A DNA stretch of 14,075 bases, taken from a virus. Its lineage: Duplodnaviria > Heunggongvirae > Uroviricota > Caudoviricetes. Shown here piece after piece: positions 7,598-13,388 of the stretch. The notes under the pieces were generated by a model. The model was not told the origin of the DNA and did not search any database. It saw only the letters and a program-made list of their open reading frames with translations. A program made the translations under genes and the position numbers. Positions within the stretch are counted from its first letter, which is position 1. Every line of letters begins with the position of its first letter. The stretch is taken from the IMG/VR virus record IMGVR_UViG_2648501920_000010. One strand, given 5' to 3'.

Positions 7598-9451
7598 TTA
7601 TGATGATGCCGGTGCATTTATCTCCAGCACCAGACTTTCTATCTCAACGCCATACGCTGCATTTTTGGTAATATCCGTCAGCGTCAGCGCATTCAGCCCC
7701 AGTGTCAGACTGTCTTTTATGACCTGGAATGCCGGGCCAGCCACTCCATTCAGTTTCGGAGTAACCGTGGCACTGCCGGCGGTGAACACCAGCTCCAGCG
7801 TCTGCCAGTCGTTACTGTAATTCCCGAACTCGCCCAACTTTGTGTTTCCTGCTTTCTTGTGATGCATCAGATTCAGTTTGCCGTCTGTGGTCTGGGTGAA
7901 GAACGACATCAGGAACGGGTTACCAGTCCCGGTCATCGCCACGACGTCAGGTAACGCTACATCGGTATACAGATAAATTCCCAGACCGAACTGGTTGTTG
8001 GTCAGTGCGCCTGACAGTCGAAACTTACAGCTCAGTCTGCCACCCCGTGTCAGCAGGGAGACTGCGTCATCCACCGGGCGCGTCAGGGACCAGGCTTTAT
8101 TGCTCTGCTTGGTGATCTTAAATACACCATCTGACAACTGAATTCCGCCATTCTTAATGCTCCAGCCCTGCGCAGCAGCGTCTCCGGCTGTCGGCAACAG
8201 GGAGATTGTGCGTATGGATGCATCTTCAGACGGCCCCGATGGCGTGTCGCCGCCGGGCGAGGCTTTGATTTCCGGTGCCTTACCACTAATGAAGGCTAAG
8301 GTGCGACCGGCTACGTTCAGAATAGCCGTTGCCATACGATCGGGAATAATGCCACGACGCGCCCATGAGCTGAAATGCGTCGGGCGATTTGATGATACCC
8401 AGTTTTTGTTCGTTCGGGATGCCGAACCGTAATAACCAGACCCGGCAATATCAGGATCTTCTGACGGGTTGTTTGTCGGTGTATTAACTCCGCTACCATC
8501 GGTCATAAAGGGAACAAAATAAATCTGCTGGGATTCTTTACCTTTATATGCACCATATACCACTTCATATTGCGTACCGTGTTCTTGTTTCCACGCGTAT
8601 GTCGTGTCGCCACAAATCCAGGGGACTGATGCCGGACTTCCACCGTGACACTGCGCCGCCAGCCCGGCAAGGTCAGCACGGAACTGCTGTACCATTGCAA
8701 GAAATGCTGCTGGCTGCTGGGCGTAACTGGCATTCGTCATATCGAATTCCCCCTGCATCCAGCATATCGCCAGCAAAACGTTTTTCGGGTTTTTCTGCAA
8801 TGCTGCCTTCGTGCGGAAAAGCAGATCCTGATATAACGGCTTACCCACTCCCCAGCGAGCCGAATCCTGACTGGCTCCCGTGGACTCGCTGAATGTCCCC
8901 TCCGTGCCCTGGGTGAATGCCGAACCACCACGACAGCATGGTACCAGCAGGATCCCCGCATTATTAGGGATATACGGAAGCAGTTTTTTGGCAATATGTA
9001 AGCCCTGTCCGACACAGCCGTACTGCCCTTTGCTCAGGTCAGCCCGGGGATGGTTAATCGTACTCATATCCTGAACATCATGCAGACAATGGTCAGCAGG
9101 AATGATGTCGTTAAATACGCATACTTCACCACCGGGAGTCACTGTGTTACGACGGGCCAGTTGCTTAATGCGCGGATGGGGCGCATCGTATGAATCCGGA
9201 AGCGGAAGCCCTTCACCGTAAGCCATGGCATTGGATTGCCCGGCCAGTACGATGACGTAGTACCACTCCGGCTCAGTTGCACCACTGACGACCACATCAC
9301 CTTCTGCTGCAATCGCCTGCATCAGGGTATAAGGGGTTATGGCCACCGGACTACCAAACGGCTGCCAGCCCTCCTTCAGTTTTTGTGTCAGTCGTTTCGC
9401 AAGGTCTGACGGCGATGCCGCCCTGACCACGTCATAGTGTTTAAATGCCAT
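7598..9451 (-). CDS. nanS-p: Prophage-encoded sialate O-acetylesterase (NanS-p-like): N-terminal DUF1737-like region, SGNH/SASA esterase core, C-terminal domain of unknown function
   Basis: 617 aa; GGGAGGA SD. GQSN motif (VIVLAGQSNAMAYGEG) near residue 70, characteristic of the 9-O-acetylesterase (SASA) family. Position directly upstream of the holin matches the NanS-p locus of EHEC lambdoid prophages. Confidence 0.8.
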   Translation of the reverse strand: MAFKHYDVVRAASPSDLAKRLTQKLKEGWQPFGSPVAITPYTLMQAIAAEGDVVVSGATEPEWYYVIVLAGQSNAMAYGEGLPLPDSYDAPHPRIKQLARRNTVTPGGEVCVFNDIIPADHCLHDVQDMSTINHPRADLSKGQYGCVGQGLHIAKKLLPYIPNNAGILLVPCCRGGSAFTQGTEGTFSESTGASQDSARWGVGKPLYQDLLFRTKAALQKNPKNVLLAICWMQGEFDMTNASYAQQPAAFLAMVQQFRADLAGLAAQCHGGSPASVPWICGDTTYAWKQEHGTQYEVVYGAYKGKESQQIYFVPFMTDGSGVNTPTNNPSEDPDIAGSGYYGSASRTNKNWVSSNRPTHFSSWARRGIIPDRMATAILNVAGRTLAFISGKAPEIKASPGGDTPSGPSEDASIRTISLLPTAGDAAAQGWSIKNGGIQLSDGVFKITKQSNKAWSLTRPVDDAVSLLTRGGRLSCKFRLSGALTNNQFGLGIYLYTDVALPDVVAMTGTGNPFLMSFFTQTTDGKLNLMHHKKAGNTKLGEFGNYSNDWQTLELVFTAGSATVTPKLNGVAGPAFQVIKDSLTLGLNALTLTDITKNAAYGVEIESLVLEINAPASS

Positions 9452-9568
9452 GAATCCTCCCGGGCGGGATAATGTTGTGAGTCAGATAAGGAGCAGGCTG
9501 AAGTCCGGAAGTTACAGGACAATGGCAGAAGGGAGACTACAGCCCGCAATTCGAAAAAGACCGCGCAG

Positions 9569-9598
9569 TTGCGCAGAGTGATTACTATGGGGTATTAT
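9569..9598 (+). promoter_or_regulatory. Candidate sigma70 promoter (TTGCGC - 18 bp - TATTAT) pointing away from nanS-p
   Basis: Hexamers read directly from sequence; the spacer length and the terminator ~50 nt downstream make a short plus-strand transcript plausible. Confidence 0.3.
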
Positions 9599-9644
9599 TC
9601 GCCAGCTGAAATATTACTTCACGTTTTATTGTTTATTCCTTGCC

Positions 9645-9673
9645 GCCCGCGTCTCCCAGCGCGGGCTTTTTTT
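9645..9673 (+). terminator. Intrinsic terminator on plus strand (GCCCGCG-tctcccag-CGCGGGC + T7)
   Basis: Perfect 7-bp GC stem, 8-nt loop, followed by TTTTTTT on the plus strand. Confidence 0.6.
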
Positions 9674-9681
9674 GTCCATAA

Positions 9682-9913
9682 GAAAGCCCCTCCGGAGAGG
9701 GGCTAAAGCCGCGTATCTGTATCATCATGCACATGGTGCCGGGTGCCTCCCGGTGAGTTCAGCCCGGTGCCACTAAACCCGCGTCATTCTCGTTTTGATA
9801 ATCAGAGATTATACCGTCACCAGTCGCCCCTCCGCTCAGGGGGATTCACCATGCGAAATTTTTTTAACAAATGCCCAGTCTGACAGGCAACTGTCAACTT
9901 ACTGAATTGTGAG
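9682..9913. repeat. Copy A of a degenerate ~220-bp direct repeat
   Basis: Shares ordered blocks with copy B: gaaagcccctccggagaggggct; catggtgccgggtgcctcccggtga; gcccctccgc(t/a)cagggggattcaccatg; ttttaacaaa; ctgaattgtgag. Confidence 0.6.
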
Positions 9914-9948
9914 CAACATAGCATTTAACGGGGAACCTGTTTTCTGCA

Positions 9949-9977
9949 GTAAAAAGGCCCACCGGAGCGGATGGGCC
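9949..9977 (-). terminator. Intrinsic terminator-like hairpin on minus strand
   Basis: Plus strand aaaaaGGCCCA-ccggagcgga-TGGGCC; on the minus strand the 6-7 bp stem is followed by TTTTT. Confidence 0.45.
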
Positions 9978-10168
9978 TGGAAGGATAGCGGTCATGTGAT
10001 GCCGGTTTCCCGGTAACTCAGCACCGGTATCTGAGTCAACGTTTTCTCTACTGGGTCATTTCCGATACGCCCTGCCTGCTGACAGGCTTTCATCACATCT
10101 GAAAATATAGCACCCTGACTGATACTGTAGTACCTAAGGTTCCAGAAACTGTGATGTATCCGGCACAG

Positions 10169-10381
10169 AAAAGCCCCTCCGGAGAGGGGCTGGAGAGTGG
10201 CGCTATGTGCCATTGCATGGTGCCGGGTGCCTCCCGGTGAATTCAGTACCAGCACCTGAATCCGCGATTATCCCATATACCTACTCGCTGATTGCCCCTC
10301 CGCACAGGGGGATTCACCATGCCAGTTTCTTTTAACAAACTCCCCGCAAACCAGACAACAGTCAACCGCCTGAATTGTGAG
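10169..10381. repeat. Copy B of the degenerate ~220-bp direct repeat
   Basis: See copy A. Identical 20-bp hairpin agcccctccggagaggggct at 10172..10191 versus 9685..9704; the other blocks are in the same order with indels. Confidence 0.6.
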
Positions 10382-10387
10382 ACATTT

Positions 10388-10410
10388 AAAAAAAGCCCGC
10401 AAAAGCGAGC
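10388..10410 (-). terminator. Intrinsic terminator immediately after the tRNA cluster (minus strand)
   Basis: Minus strand gctcgc-tttt-gcgggc followed by TTTTTTT, starting ~16 nt past the 3' CCA of the last tRNA. Confidence 0.6.
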
Positions 10411-10425
10411 CAGGGAAAATAAGTG

Positions 10426-10502
10426 TGGCGCGTTGTACTGGATTCGAACCAGTGACCGATTGCTTAGAAGGCAATTGCTCTGTCCGGCTGAGCTAACAAC
10501 GC
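10426..10502 (-). tRNA. argO: tRNA-Arg (anticodon UCU)
   Basis: Hand-folded 77-nt cloverleaf GCGTTGTTAGCTCAGCCGGACAGAGCAATTGCCTTCTAAGCAATCGGTCACTGGTTCGAATCCAGTACAACGCGCCA: 7-bp acceptor stem, D arm GCTC/GAGC, anticodon loop CUUCUAA, canonical GGTTCGAATCC T arm, encoded CCA. Gene symbol by analogy with the Stx-phage tRNA cluster. Confidence 0.8.
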
Positions 10503-10515
10503 AGGATACAGATAA

Positions 10516-10593
10516 TGGACCGCCTTCGGGGACCCGAACTCCGCGCAACCAGCTTCGAAAGCTGGCGCTCTTTCCTGATGAGCTAATGGCGGT
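10516..10593 (-). tRNA. argN: tRNA-Arg-like (anticodon loop UUUCGAA, anticodon UCG), atypical
   Basis: Sequence CCGCCATTAGCTCATCAGGAAAGAGCGCCAGCTTTCGAAGCTGGTTGCGCGGAGTTCGGGTCCCCGAAGGCGGTCCA folds as a cloverleaf with a good anticodon arm (CCAGC/GCTGG) and D arm, but has one mismatch in the acceptor stem, one in the T stem, and a T loop TTCGGGT (G where A58 is expected). Boundaries +/- 2 nt. Gene symbol by position only. Confidence 0.5.
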
Positions 10594-10599
10594 ATGTGA

Positions 10600-10675
10600 T
10601 GGTGGCCCTTGCTGGATTTGAACCAGCGACCTGGCGATTATGAGTCGCTCGCTCTCACCACTGAGCTAAAGGGCC
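10600..10675 (-). tRNA. ileZ: tRNA-Ile2 type (anticodon CAU; could formally be Met)
   Basis: GGCCCTTTAGCTCAGTGGTGAGAGCGAGCGACTCATAATCGCCAGGTCGCTGGTTCAAATCCAGCAAGGGCCACCA: canonical cloverleaf, anticodon loop CUCAUAA, encoded CCA; closely resembles E. coli ileX/ileY-type tRNA from memory. Confidence 0.8.
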
Positions 10676-10724
10676 GGGAGCAGAATAATAATGGTGCGTA
10701 ATTAATTCTGCAATCTCATCCGTT

Positions 10725-11774
10725 TCAAACGATTAAATCCTGAACTTCCCTGACTGTCTGCTCAAAACGTCCGGTCTCCAGTTCAACGCCAATCGCACGA
10801 CGCCCAAGCGCCAGTGCCGCTTTTACCGTTGAACCTGAGCCCATAAAAAAATCTGCAACCAGGTCACCCGGACGACTGCTTGCGCTGATTATCTGCTGCA
10901 GCATTTCTGCCGGTTTTTCGCACGGATGTTTCCCGGGATAGAACTGCACCGGTTTATGTGTCCACACATCCGTGTACGGCACCTGCGCCGTCACACCAAA
11001 ATACCGCCGCAGATGCTTATATTCACTCTGCAGCTCCACATACTGCCGGTTCAGTGACGTATACGTATCCACCAGCTGGTGGTGGGGCTTTTCCAGTTCA
11101 CCGCGCTGATGTTTCTCTTCTGCCACCCGGGCAAACAGCGACTGTAATTTCAGATAATCGCTTTCGTTCGGTAGCTGCCACTGACTGGCACTGAACCAGT
11201 GCGACACCATGTTTTTCTTTCCTGTGGCATCTGCAATCTGTTTTGCCGTTATCCCCAGGGCAGCGCGCGCATCACGAAAGTAAGAAATCAGCGGGGCCAT
11301 CACATGCTGTTTCAGTGCACTGCCCTTCGCCGCATACCCGGCATCTTTCGGACGATACGGCCCCTGATAATGTTCCGCGAACAGAATGCGCTCTGTGGCG
11401 GGGAAATACGCCCGCAGGCTTTCCTTGTTGCATCCGTTCCAGCGTCCGGACGGCTTCGCCCAGATAATATGGTTCAGCACACTGAAGCGTTCACGCATCA
11501 TGATTTCGATATCAGATGCCAGGCGATGACCACAGAACAGGTAAAGACTTCCGACAGGTTTCAGCACCCGCCAGAACTGCGCCAGACACTGGTCCAGCCA
11601 CTTCAGGTAATCATCGTCGCCCTTCCACTGGTTATCCCAGCCCTCAGGCTTCACTTTAAAGTACGGCGGGTCCGTGACTATCAGGTCAACAGAATTTTCG
11701 GGTAACGACCGGATAAATTCCAGGCAGTCGGCGTTGATTAACTCACAACTGGATATTTTTACAGTATTAAGCAT
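10725..11774 (-). CDS. Orphan DNA methyltransferase, beta-class (N6-adenine or N4-cytosine)
   Basis: 349 aa. Motif IV DPPY (LIVTDPPYF) near the N-terminus and AdoMet-binding motif I FxGxG (DFFMGSGST) near the C-terminus, the circular permutation order of beta-class amino-MTases. No restriction endonuclease candidate nearby. Weak SD. Confidence 0.85.
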   Translation of the reverse strand: MLNTVKISSCELINADCLEFIRSLPENSVDLIVTDPPYFKVKPEGWDNQWKGDDDYLKWLDQCLAQFWRVLKPVGSLYLFCGHRLASDIEIMMRERFSVLNHIIWAKPSGRWNGCNKESLRAYFPATERILFAEHYQGPYRPKDAGYAAKGSALKQHVMAPLISYFRDARAALGITAKQIADATGKKNMVSHWFSASQWQLPNESDYLKLQSLFARVAEEKHQRGELEKPHHQLVDTYTSLNRQYVELQSEYKHLRRYFGVTAQVPYTDVWTHKPVQFYPGKHPCEKPAEMLQQIISASSRPGDLVADFFMGSGSTVKAALALGRRAIGVELETGRFEQTVREVQDLIV

Positions 11775-11910
11775 GGATCATTAAGCCTGTCTCTGATAGG
11801 CTCATTCTGCTTTTGCGCAAAGCAGTGGGCCTGAGGTTTGCTTGTGAACCCAACGCATGAGCAGATGGCTGGTGGGTGCCCCTAACACCCACCAGCCGCC
11901 CATTTACCAC

Positions 11911-11938
11911 AAATAAAAAAGCCTTCAGGACTGAAGGC
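11911..11938 (-). terminator. Intrinsic terminator between the small ORF and the methyltransferase
   Basis: Minus strand gccttcagt-cc-tgaaggc followed by TTTTTTATTT; the hairpin overlaps the last codons of the upstream small ORF. Confidence 0.55.
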
Positions 11939-12122
11939 GTCTGTAACAACCGAACTGATAGTCTGCCAGACCCGCCATAACCAGCTGGGTCAGTATTAAC
12001 TGGCAGCGTTCGCGTGAAAGGTAAGTATTCTGCGCTATCTCCCCGACTGTCGCCGGTTCGGTAACGCTTAATTCATTAAACACCACTCTGGCGGTTTCTG
12101 TCATATCCTGCTGTTTTAGCAT
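11925..12122 (-). CDS. Small winged-helix-like protein, possibly FaeA/PapI-like regulator (65 aa from ATG 12122; track ORF extends to 12209)
   Basis: MLKQQDMTETARVVFNELSVTEPATVGEIAQNTYLSRERCQLILTQLVMAGLADYQFGCYRRLQS. The pattern x-hydrophobic-x-E-L ... T-(A/V)-x-E-I-A ... Y-x-(A/S)-R ... L-hydrophobic ... AG resembles the single winged-helix domain of PapI/FaeA-type regulators (remembered PapI: [41 protein letters not shown]). AAGGAA SD before the ATG at 12122. Assignment is pattern-level only. Confidence 0.35.
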   Translation of the reverse strand: MLKQQDMTETARVVFNELSVTEPATVGEIAQNTYLSRERCQLILTQLVMAGLADYQFGCYRRLQS

Positions 12123-12244
12123 GTCTTTTTCCTTTTTCCGGTTAACGTGACATACCAATAACTCTTGTCGAAAAAGCCAGCAAGCTGAAAGACCCGTATT
12201 CGCAACCACCAGCGTGTTTACTGTACTGACGCGATTTTGGGCAT

Positions 12245-12275
12245 AAAAAAAAACCGCCTGACGGCAGTTTTTTTT
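12245..12275 (-). terminator. tR'-like intrinsic terminator downstream of the putative Q gene
   Basis: A9-CCGCC-tgac-GGCAG-T8: near-perfect 13-nt inverted repeat. On the minus strand the GC stem is followed by a T9 run, ~60 nt after the putative Q stop. Confidence 0.55.
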
Positions 12276-12336
12276 CTTACTTTGCCATCGCGTACAAAAT
12301 CGGCAAAATATCAGATTTATACGAAACGTACGCTAT
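12276..12336 (-). promoter_or_regulatory. Candidate late promoter (pR'-equivalent) and qut region
   Basis: Positional inference: the interval between the putative Q stop and the tR'-like terminator contains TATAAA (-10-like) with a weak TCAATT 17 bp upstream on the minus strand. Not verified. Confidence 0.3.
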
Positions 12337-13026
12337 TTAATTGACTTTTGCAATATCTCGTCGTGAAAAAGTCGCTTTTTGTTGCGCTCTTATTTTCACG
12401 GTGCAAATCACAGATTCTCTATCGAGACTCTTAAAAATATCGCACATCTCACGCCAGTAGTTCGCATAATTATGGCTCCAGTTATCAGGCTTAACTCCAC
12501 ACAGTCTGGCAAGCTCCTGTCTCTGGTAGACCTCACACCCGGTAATCCATCCTCTGACATCCTGTGCCGCCAGCCAGATCAACTTCTTCACGCGCTCCTG
12601 CGTTTTCCCTGCAATTTTTCTGGTGCCGTACCGGGTTTTAAATTCATTCCACACCCACTGCGTTATCGCGATCTGATATTCCCAACAAATACTCCCGCTG
12701 TAACACCACAACAACCAGGCTTTATGATGTTCTTCAAGAGACAGAACAGCCCGCCGCCACGATGATGTCGAAAACTCAACCGGACTGACGAGAGGAATTG
12801 ACACCCCCTTCGCCAGCGATTGCTTTCCCGGGATTGGTGGATTATCCCGCGTTATCATTTTTCCAGTCACTTCATCGCGGTACCGGATTTTTTTACGCCT
12901 GTAACGCCCTGTATCAAACATGGCATTCTCCTGCCAGGCCTCAAGCTGCCCTTTTGTTGATCCACTCAAATCGGCGGTGGCAATCATGAGTTGCTCACGA
13001 ACAAACTGTAAATACTGGTTATTCAT
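12337..13026 (-). CDS. Putative late-gene antiterminator Q (assignment by synteny)
   Basis: 229 aa ORF directly downstream of rusA and upstream of a promoter/terminator pair and the tRNA cluster, the position Q occupies in lambdoid and Stx phages. I do not recognise clear sequence similarity to lambda Q; it may belong to another Q family (e.g. QuuQ/Q82-like). Confidence 0.4.
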   Translation of the reverse strand: MNNQYLQFVREQLMIATADLSGSTKGQLEAWQENAMFDTGRYRRKKIRYRDEVTGKMITRDNPPIPGKQSLAKGVSIPLVSPVEFSTSSWRRAVLSLEEHHKAWLLWCYSGSICWEYQIAITQWVWNEFKTRYGTRKIAGKTQERVKKLIWLAAQDVRGWITGCEVYQRQELARLCGVKPDNWSHNYANYWREMCDIFKSLDRESVICTVKIRAQQKATFSRRDIAKVN

Positions 13027-13388
13027 GCGTACTCCAGTTCTGTGATTTTTATCCCCAACCGCCCACCAGGAACAAGCTGACCGCGCACAATATTAATTTC
13101 ATCAAACTGCTCGTCGTCTATGAGCAGCCCCGCATGCGTCAGTACATCCAGTGGTGCCTTCAGGATATTGTCCAGGTCACGACGGCGCTTATCCGGTGGC
13201 TCTGCAATAATTTCTATTGCCGGCCTTCCGGACAGGTTTAATTTCAGTTGCTGCTGGCGAACAATAAGCGCCACATCACGGCGATAACGCTCACCGACTT
13301 TTGATACAAAATATGTGCTGCCACGACGTCGCCAGTAAGTGTTCACCGTTGGCGGGTAAGGCAAAACAAATTCTATGCGTTCAGTCAT
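13023..13388 (-). CDS. rusA: Holliday junction resolvase RusA
   Basis: 121 aa; LPYPPTVNTYW near the N-terminus and DKRRRDLDNILKAPLDVLTHAGLLIDDEQ match RusA (E. coli RusA: LPWPPSNNRYY ... [29 protein letters not shown], from memory). Start overlaps the upstream gene stop. Confidence 0.85.
   Translation of the reverse strand: MTERIEFVLPYPPTVNTYWRRRGSTYFVSKVGERYRRDVALIVRQQQLKLNLSGRPAIEIIAEPPDKRRRDLDNILKAPLDVLTHAGLLIDDEQFDEINIVRGQLVPGGRLGIKITELEYA

Follow-up and report, generated by a model that had tools for sequence, protein, structure and literature searches.

What occupies the stx site of a lambdoid prophage late region that has the gene order of Stx-converting phages, but no stxA and stxB between its tRNA genes and nanS-p? 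The question is raised by a 974-bp slot (9452-10425) in a 14,075-nt stretch of Caudoviricetes DNA (IMG/VR record IMGVR_UViG_2648501920_000010; the whole stretch is called the window here). The slot is exactly the gap between tRNA-Arg(tct) and the 617-aa esterase ORF nanS-p, which starts at 9451 (Table 1), and all late genes of the window are on the minus strand. Many non-STEC E. coli genomes, among them CE10 (O7:K1), APEC O18 and VR50, contain DNA 100% identical to it, and the RefSeq annotation of the identical CE10 DNA reads Q, DNA methyltransferase, tRNA-Ile/Arg/Arg, the gap, SASA esterase, holin, YdfR, lysozyme and lysis protein. Because RefSeq gives this order in identical DNA, the late-region gene order proposed in a first-pass annotation of the window is correct, and the backbone is that of a Stx-converting phage: Q, tRNA Ile/Arg/Arg, sRNA module, nanS-p, holin, endolysin and Rz. 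The same annotation had regarded the slot as structured non-coding DNA standing instead of stxAB, either a scar of toxin-operon loss or a cargo site holding regulatory RNA elements. Our analysis favours the latter, as the slot carries genes of known Hfq-dependent sRNA families, and very probably consists of four small-RNA genes arrayed in the cargo ('moron') region of the late operon. What carries this reading is family membership of, or close identity to, experimentally detected sRNAs, a scaffold with compensatory changes, and the position of the genes relative to stx.

Table 1. Features of the slot and its boundaries in the window
Feature	Position	Strand	Basis or remark
nanS-p / SASA-family carbohydrate esterase	7598..9451	-	ORF list and RefSeq annotation of identical DNA; downstream slot boundary
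Candidate promoter, long form	9445..9473	+	ATGCCA-17-GATAAT; promoter scan, 9/12 matches
Convergent sRNA gene, EcOnc08/21/42 family	9480..9673	+	Homology including seed and terminator; antisense to nanS-p 5' UTR
Terminator-like hairpin in nanS-p 5' UTR	9561..9576	-	CTGCGCAACTGCGCGG + TCTTTTT; terminator scan
Candidate internal promoter	9569..9598	+	TTGCGC-18 nt-TATTAT
Plus-strand sRNA terminator	9645-9666 + T7 run	+	Terminator scan
STnc100-family sRNA gene, copy 3 (stx-adjacent type)	9674..9913	-	RF02076 match 9883-9674
Copy 3 terminator	9704-9685	-	Terminator scan
Weak sixth terminator-like match, within 5' part of copy 3	9889-9872	-	Terminator scan
Divergent middle paralogue of the STnc100 scaffold	9949..10122	-	RF02076 sub-threshold match
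Middle paralogue terminator	9978-9955	-	Terminator scan
STnc100-family sRNA gene, copy 1 (EcOnc05 type)	10161..10386	-	RF02076 match 10351-10161
Copy 1 terminator	10191-10172	-	Terminator scan
Variable stretches of the three late-strand copies			AATGGCACATAGCGCCACTCTCC, ACCGCTATCCTTCC, GCATGATGATACAGATACGCGG
Terminator after tRNA-Arg(tct)	10387..10411 (hairpin 10411-10394)	-	GGCTCGCTTTTGCGGGCT + T7 run; terminator scan
tRNA cluster	10426..10675	-	ARAGORN and Rfam; upstream slot boundary
tRNA-Arg(tct)	10502-10426	-	ARAGORN
tRNA-Arg(tcg)	10592-10516	-	ARAGORN
tRNA-Ile2 (CAT anticodon)	10675-10600	-	ARAGORN label Met; RefSeq label tRNA-Ile

Canonical STnc100 genes and a convergent sRNA gene

The Rfam covariance-model scan that the first-pass annotation had proposed, run at gathering thresholds, identified two full-length copies of RF02076 (STnc100) on the late strand with scores above the gathering score of 47 bits, and a permissive scan for sub-threshold matches added one below it. 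RF02076, an Hfq-binding sRNA first found in Salmonella prophages, corresponds to EcOnc27/EcOnc05 and is related to PasD. Copy 1 (136.3 bits, E = 1.6e-30) and copy 3 (165.4 bits, E = 5e-38) both match the full model, positions 1-206, and belong to the family. The copy 3 unit starts at CTCACAATTCAG (9913), and the repeat unit of copy 1, with a probable 5' leader, starts near the same element (10381). In local BLAST, the stretch 10520-10170, comprising tRNA-Arg and copy 1, was 99.4% identical to the tRNA-Arg and EcOnc05 region of Sakai Sp4. A consensus scan of the minus strand detected no canonical sigma-70 promoter upstream of either copy 1 or copy 3, whose 5' ends could therefore come from processing of longer transcripts. 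By eye, the A/T-rich hexamers TAAATG and TATGTT lie 3-4 nt upstream of CACAATTC, and the TGTTAAAAA element aligns with the TGCTATATT of the middle paralogue and with the sequence just before the mapped 5' end of PasD; both are leads rather than results.

Genes of this kind and at this position are known from Sakai prophages: a study by Tree et al. (2014, Mol Cell; PMC4104026) reported "convergent sRNAs at the PR' moron site". In Sp3, Sp4, Sp5, Sp9, Sp10, Sp11, Sp15 and Sp17, these genes lie 3' of PR', with the moron CDS on one side and a conserved downstream ORF on the other. EcOnc05, EcOnc27 and EcOnc08/21 were detected as Hfq-CRAC peaks and on Northern blots (PMC4104026), with bands of ~222 nt for EcOnc05 (PMC4104026 Table S2) and ~235/247 nt for EcOnc27. 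The pairs EcOnc05 with EcOnc08/21 in Sp4 and EcOnc27 with AsxR in Sp5 share with the genes in the window their convergence and their position, past the Q-controlled cargo and the tRNAs and ahead of the esterase ORF. The window has three late-strand genes compared to one in each pair; its additional 470 bp hold the middle paralogue together with another canonical copy, which is of a different allele type. EcOnc15 of Sp15 was rejected as a homologue: since it is sited between Q and stx1A, it is a different element.

The plus-strand gene belongs to the EcOnc08/21/42 family by homology that includes seed and terminator; it lies upstream of the esterase, convergent with an STnc100-type gene, and its 3' end immediately adjoins that of copy 3. 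The stretch 9440-9690 is 92-96% identical over 251 nt in five loci (with Sp4, EPEC PP6, Sp15 and ASU11 compared), and the gene is 92-93% identical to EHEC EcOnc08/21 and the EPEC RIL-seq sRNA, the value for the Sp4 EcOnc08/21 locus being 93%. The Hfq-CRAC peaks of this Sp4 locus transfer to 9599-9671 (EcOnc08) and 9508-9593 (EcOnc21) of the window. The seed CCTTGCC (CCUUGCC) directly precedes the terminator, at 9638-9644; it is unchanged in six of the seven aligned loci and complementary to the RIL-seq target motif of the EPEC homologue, GGCAAGG/GGCAGGG (PMC8550237 supplements). That homologue, 'E2348C_1409.E2348C_1408.IGR', is a 182-nt RIL-seq sRNA that its authors equate with EcOnc08/21/42 (PMC8550237), and among the chimeras listed it has most with the cfa 5'UTR (PMC8550237 supplements).

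The ATGCCA-17-GATAAT element, which overlaps the nanS-p start codon and whose hexamers are largely conserved in the seven-locus alignment, would be the promoter of a long form of this sRNA. A short form of ~69 nt (~9605-9673) may be made besides it from the candidate internal promoter, because the TTGCGC-18 nt--10 layout is common to the window and the Sp5 AsxR region: the TTGCGC hexamer is invariant in all seven loci and in Sp5 is followed, at a distance of 18 nt, by TAAAAT; shortly after this comes the AsxR sequence in the form that Rfam and Tree et al. give, with the AsxR 5' end mapped by RLM-RACE (PMC4104026). AsxR and AgvB (RF02703, RF02702) correspond in position and strand to the 3' part of this gene, and share with it upstream sequence and the -35 hexamer TTGCGC. 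They differ from it in body and terminator, and by a FnrS-/GcvB-mimicking 5' end in contrast to the CCUUGCC seed of the window. They have a conserved 3' region of ~42 nt (AGUAUCUCAUGC..GCCCGAACCCAYUCGGGC), and the 3' module of the window is unrelated to that of Sp5, whose homology to the plus-strand gene ends right after TTGCGCAG, followed by the AsxR module. With no RF02703 or RF02702 match at E <= 1 in a covariance-model scan of 6800-13200, and only position and promoter layout shared, we do not consider the gene an AsxR/AgvB member.

The hairpins and the degenerate tandem duplication seen by inspection of the slot are real. Where at least four hairpins, two of them terminator-like, had been counted, a terminator scan of 9300-10750 found 10 terminator-like sites, compared to 1.4 +/- 1.4 in shuffled sequences; these reduce to five distinct late-strand hairpins, a weak sixth match and one plus-strand hairpin. 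The duplication consists of an 88-nt repeat (80% identity, 468-nt spacing) and a 31-nt repeat (97% identity, 484-nt spacing), that is, with units ~470-480 nt apart. Folding stability was unremarkable (z-scores: whole slot, -1.8; plus-strand RNA, -1.2) and, being uninformative, was dropped as evidence for structure, which comes instead from the covariance models and from covariation.

The middle paralogue and a shared scaffold

The middle paralogue has a score of 30.1 bits against RF02076 (E = 0.0011), below the gathering score, and we treat it as a divergent relative with a common scaffold, not as a curated member of the family. Its whole length aligns with the canonical copies. The 5' part is shorter, and the helices differ in sequence: the long-range helix is formed by AUGUGAUG/CAUCACAU, replacing the canonical CAUGGUG/CACCAUG, and the first hairpin by GCCUG/CAGGC in place of CCCC/GGGG. 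It has an extended -10, TGCTATATT (10112-10104), and its predicted RNA is ~150 nt (~10098-9950).

To examine the scaffold, we aligned 12 family members, drawn from the three copies in the window, Sp5, Sp15, ASU11, PhiR5_2, E. coli 4/2-1 and PasD2. The scaffold is that of STnc100, EcOnc27 and PasD, with a long-range helix around three hairpins, then a variable stretch, and then the terminator. Over 35 pairs, 95.0% of the cells are paired (89.2 +/- 0.6 in shuffles), and compensatory changes occur in 13 of the 35 pairs, with much of the covariation contributed by the middle paralogue. None of 500 shuffles reached the observed paired fraction or the number of compensatory pairs, and in a control with partners slid by 1-3 columns pairing fell to 39-54%.

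The stretch between scaffold and terminator is different in all three window copies. It occurs as discrete types on different scaffolds, as in Sp15, which combines a 5' part like that of copy 3 with the variable stretch of copy 1, and because the same types sit on different scaffolds, modular reshuffling by recombination within the conserved core is suggested. Copies 1 and 3 share 71% identity, and each shares 55-57% with the middle paralogue. They are old paralogues: at pairwise identities of no more than 55-71%, an origin of the array by recent duplication was rejected. Recombination between prophages is more likely to have assembled it, given that the copies are diverged, copy 1 is near-identical to that of Sp4 and copy 3 is close to Stx2a-phage alleles.

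PasD1 and PasD2 of EPEC E2348/69 (Pearl Mizrahi 2021; PMC8550237) resemble the window genes in that PasD is directly upstream of a sialate esterase gene and aligns to the same scaffold. PasD is 172 nt long, with a mapped seed in the stretch between scaffold and terminator (PMC8550237), and a 2026 preprint by Zhu, Shabalina and Storz (10.64898/2026.05.13.724894) proposes a common ancestor for STnc100 and PasD. Unlike the tandem paralogues of the window, Pas copies are reported to be distal and not in tandem (10.64898/2026.05.13.724894). Aligned identity of the window copies to PasD2 is 47-56%, the locus with PasD2 (L005) gave no RF02076 match at the gathering score, and BLAST found nothing past the esterase start; identity of any window copy with PasD was thus rejected, and the likeness is at the level of the scaffold only.

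The middle paralogue is present in 673 of 5,426 complete E. coli genomes (~12%), including the type strain ATCC 11775, ST1193 and APEC strains, and also in five non-Stx phage records. There are two alleles, ~85% identical to each other, and both retain the extended -10 TGCTATATT, the scaffold and an intact terminator, in a different stem register. The middle paralogue was also seen in 117 IMG/VR contigs; wherever the flank upstream of it was complete, a canonical copy preceded it, and at least 55 show the full layout of the window. Of 120 viral contigs bearing STnc100, sampled arbitrarily, 106 carry a single copy, 12 an array with the middle element, and two a pair of canonical copies back to back. 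Among the strains listed, it is mostly non-STEC ones that have an array prophage with no toxin at this site.

Published work largely explains the slot; what seems undescribed is confined to the array of three genes and the middle paralogue. We tentatively propose, with rather less than even confidence, that the middle element is an unnamed third STnc100/PasD lineage with an extended -10 promoter and a seed of its own, that toxin-free prophages fill the stx site with an expandable sRNA array, and that recombination in the core reshuffles seed and scaffold.

The stx site and alternative readings of the slot

BLASTN against Stx and stx-negative prophages, also proposed earlier, matched both flanks of the slot to stx-flanking sequence, with Sp4 as a stx-free counterpart. 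The stretch 10520-10384 (tRNA-Arg and the trailer terminator) is 92-93% identical to the sequence just upstream of stx2A in Sp5 and ASU11, the terminator hairpin being conserved in both as well as in Sp4, and homology with the Stx2 phages stops right after its T-run, the boundary where the stx cassette sits. On the other side, 9912-9401 corresponds to the stretch that begins 42 nt downstream of stx2B and extends into nanS-p (ASU11 92%, Sp15 87%, Sp5 77%). The Stx2 phages (Sakai Sp5 and the Stx2a phage ASU11) and the Stx1 phage Sp15 have the STnc100 and convergent-sRNA module between stxB and nanS-p. In Sp5, RF02076 matches with 208 bits 75 nt downstream of stx2B, convergent with AsxR, and the matched stretch includes the Northern-probe sequence of EcOnc27; STnc100 downstream of stx2 has been noted in two later papers (PMC12370729; PMC12711010). 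In the stx-free Sakai Sp4, the tRNAs are followed by a single STnc100 copy with the convergent gene and then the esterase. Since the RNA module coexists with stx in toxin phages, it is backbone and not replacement, and the notion of RNA elements instead of stxAB is not supported. Only 10383-9913 (copy 1 and the middle paralogue, ~470 bp) is positionally equivalent to stxAB, and 9912-9452 is backbone common to Stx phages.

Three other readings of the slot were weighed against four sRNA genes. Were the 974 bp decayed remnants left by loss of stxAB, a Stx-phage gene order and flanks that match stx-flanking sequence would be expected, and both are found; but BLAST with the stx1 and stx2 cassettes at word size 7 finds nothing in the slot, which contains intact, high-scoring sRNA genes also present in Stx phages and in stx-free Sp4. 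The junction is precise as well, the stx2 cassette of Sp5 being a clean 1.33-kb insertion, relative to the window or Sp4, between the tRNA-trailer T-run and the TCACAATTCAG start of the STnc100 unit. With no stx remnant and so clean a junction, a scar of toxin loss is extremely unlikely. It is very unlikely that the middle element or another part of the slot encodes a small protein, the candidates being a 33-aa ORF (MKACQQAGRIGNDPVEKTLTQIPVLSYRETGIT) and the longest ORF of the slot, of 87 aa with a GTG start, which covers the end of copy 1 as well as the middle element and in the other allele has a different start and 55 aa. Frame and stop are kept in both alleles, the ORF matches phrog_23557, is annotated as hypothetical in PhiR5_2 and is sometimes called by automatic annotation. 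Yet phrog_23557, its only match, is of unknown function, no Pfam match was found, and 5.8 billion proteins yielded just four clusters for the ORF, even though 12% of E. coli genomes carry the DNA. Moreover, the start is not conserved in the 85%-identical allele, no Shine-Dalgarno motif precedes the internal ATG on reading the sequence, and the codons that differ comprise five amino-acid-changing and two silent ones, most of them within an RNA hairpin, where the changes are compensatory. The earlier view that the slot has no convincing ORF is therefore upheld, and we regard the 87/55-aa ORF, unsupported as coding sequence, as an artefact of annotation, leaving a dual-function RNA a small residual probability.

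The location downstream of Q/PR' and the five distinct late-strand terminator-like hairpins between the tRNAs and nanS-p would also suit a purely cis-acting role, in which the stack serves as a multi-terminator insulator or as processing or stability sites of the late transcript, with no function in trans. A stack of terminators, however, needs neither a conserved ~150-nt four-helix scaffold with compensatory changes nor a convergent gene with a conserved seed, and the homologues bind Hfq and form chimeras with mRNAs (PMC4104026, PMC8550237). A role in cis alone is thus improbable, and an insulator effect is likely to be real but a by-product.

Expression, proposed action and significance

With four sRNA genes as the preferred reading, each gene would, in the lysogen, be transcribed from its own promoter, independently of Q, and transcription would stop at its own terminator. 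The RNAs would associate with Hfq and regulate in trans. For base pairing, the late-strand paralogues would use the single-stranded variable stretch that separates scaffold from terminator, and the plus-strand RNA would use CCUUGCC. Published ideas on trans targets of STnc100-type RNAs are limited to an 11-nt complementarity to stxB and over-expression effects on fimZ and espA (PMC12370729, PMC12711010). On induction, Q-modified RNA polymerase would read through the late-strand hairpins into nanS-p and the lysis genes, which the same hairpins may insulate when Q is absent. Relative to the late transcript, the plus-strand gene runs antisense to the leader of nanS-p.

PasD, PasA, related sRNAs and the EPEC homologue of the plus-strand gene have been detected in uninduced cultures (PMC8550237), as have homologues in EHEC (PMC4104026), and their presence in uninduced EHEC and EPEC implies Q-independent expression. 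The statement in the first-pass annotation that anything in the slot is co-induced with lysis therefore captures a part of the picture only.

The window indicates that the cargo site of a lambdoid late operon can hold up to four Hfq-type sRNA genes, one of them a paralogue overlooked by Rfam though ~12% of complete E. coli genomes have it. With the array and the middle paralogue, published work is extended modestly, and no new class of biology is opened. Because variation in EcOnc27, the stx-adjacent member, has been statistically linked to HUS outcome (PMC12711010), a catalogue of allele types and arrays would be of some use for virulence genomics. The comparison with toxin phages corrects an attractive replacement reading: the structured RNA is the resident partner of stx in these phages, and for that reason the sRNA module says nothing about past toxin carriage. 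If the reading of a third lineage and an expandable array is true, the morons would be the sRNA genes themselves, and each prophage would have a combination of host-directed regulators of its own.

Paralogue matched by the STnc_100 qPCR primers

'STnc_100' has been quantified by qPCR in outer-membrane vesicles of STEC (PMC12370729). We found that the primers used match exactly to copy 1, the EcOnc05-type gene of the slot (window 10321-10302 and 10248-10229, minus strand). At the reverse-primer site, where the primer expects CTGAATTCACC, the stx2-adjacent alleles of Sakai Sp5 and of the Stx2a phage ASU11 have CCGAACTCACC/CTGAACTCACC instead, and the assay may thus report a paralogue other than the one discussed in that paper.

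Rearrangements and further matches in the window and in PP6

Table. Mobile-element, STnc100 and STnc370 features in the window and comparison loci
Feature	Location	Strand	Details
IS3-family element remnant	window 3944-4330	+	orfA and ALIL frameshift pseudoknot (RF01497, 76 bits)
STnc370 match, sub-threshold	window 12204-12280	+	39 bits vs gathering score 54
ISEc13 (IS4-like) within copy-1-type STnc100 gene	L006 1600-3151		EPEC E2348/69 prophage PP6
Two canonical STnc100 cores in tandem	L131 3101-3348		IMG/VR contig; 232 nt apart
Two canonical STnc100 cores in tandem	L184 1394-1676		IMG/VR contig; 267 nt apart
Three-gene STnc100 array as in the window, then iraM (anti-adapter protein)	L009 2421-3540		E. 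coli 4/2-1

The terminase large-subunit gene (terL, minus strand) carries an internal deletion of 159 bp (53 codons) at window ~2774-2784 when compared with prophages otherwise 100% identical, such as that of strain 2017C-4173W12. The prophage may be packaging-defective. The two BLAST pieces have 11 window bases (2774-2784) in common at the junction, an overlap that may reflect a short direct repeat. The IS3-family remnant lies between the terminase genes and the lysis cassette; because E. coli CE10 has a full-length IS3 at the corresponding site, ~0.9 kb of the element is absent from the window. The STnc370 match falls just downstream of Q, within the expected PR'/tR' region.

In PP6, the flanks of the ISEc13 insertion overlap by 8 bp (equivalent to window 10300-10307). 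The convergent sRNA beside the interrupted gene is intact, and is the one found by RIL-seq.

Convergent sRNAs and array contexts

In Sp5 (L003 4125-4346), compared with window 9569-9673, the EcOnc08-type sRNA has its 3' portion replaced by the AsxR module, with the breakpoint immediately 3' of a common hexamer, TTGCGC(AG). The AsxR and EcOnc08-type convergent sRNAs appear to be alternative cassettes behind a single promoter position.

The tandem cores of the two IMG/VR contigs, without the middle paralogue, are a second kind of tandem array. In E. coli 4/2-1, all three genes are followed by iraM, with iss nearby, where the window has the convergent sRNA and nanS-p; the three genes of the array are therefore carried together into other contexts.
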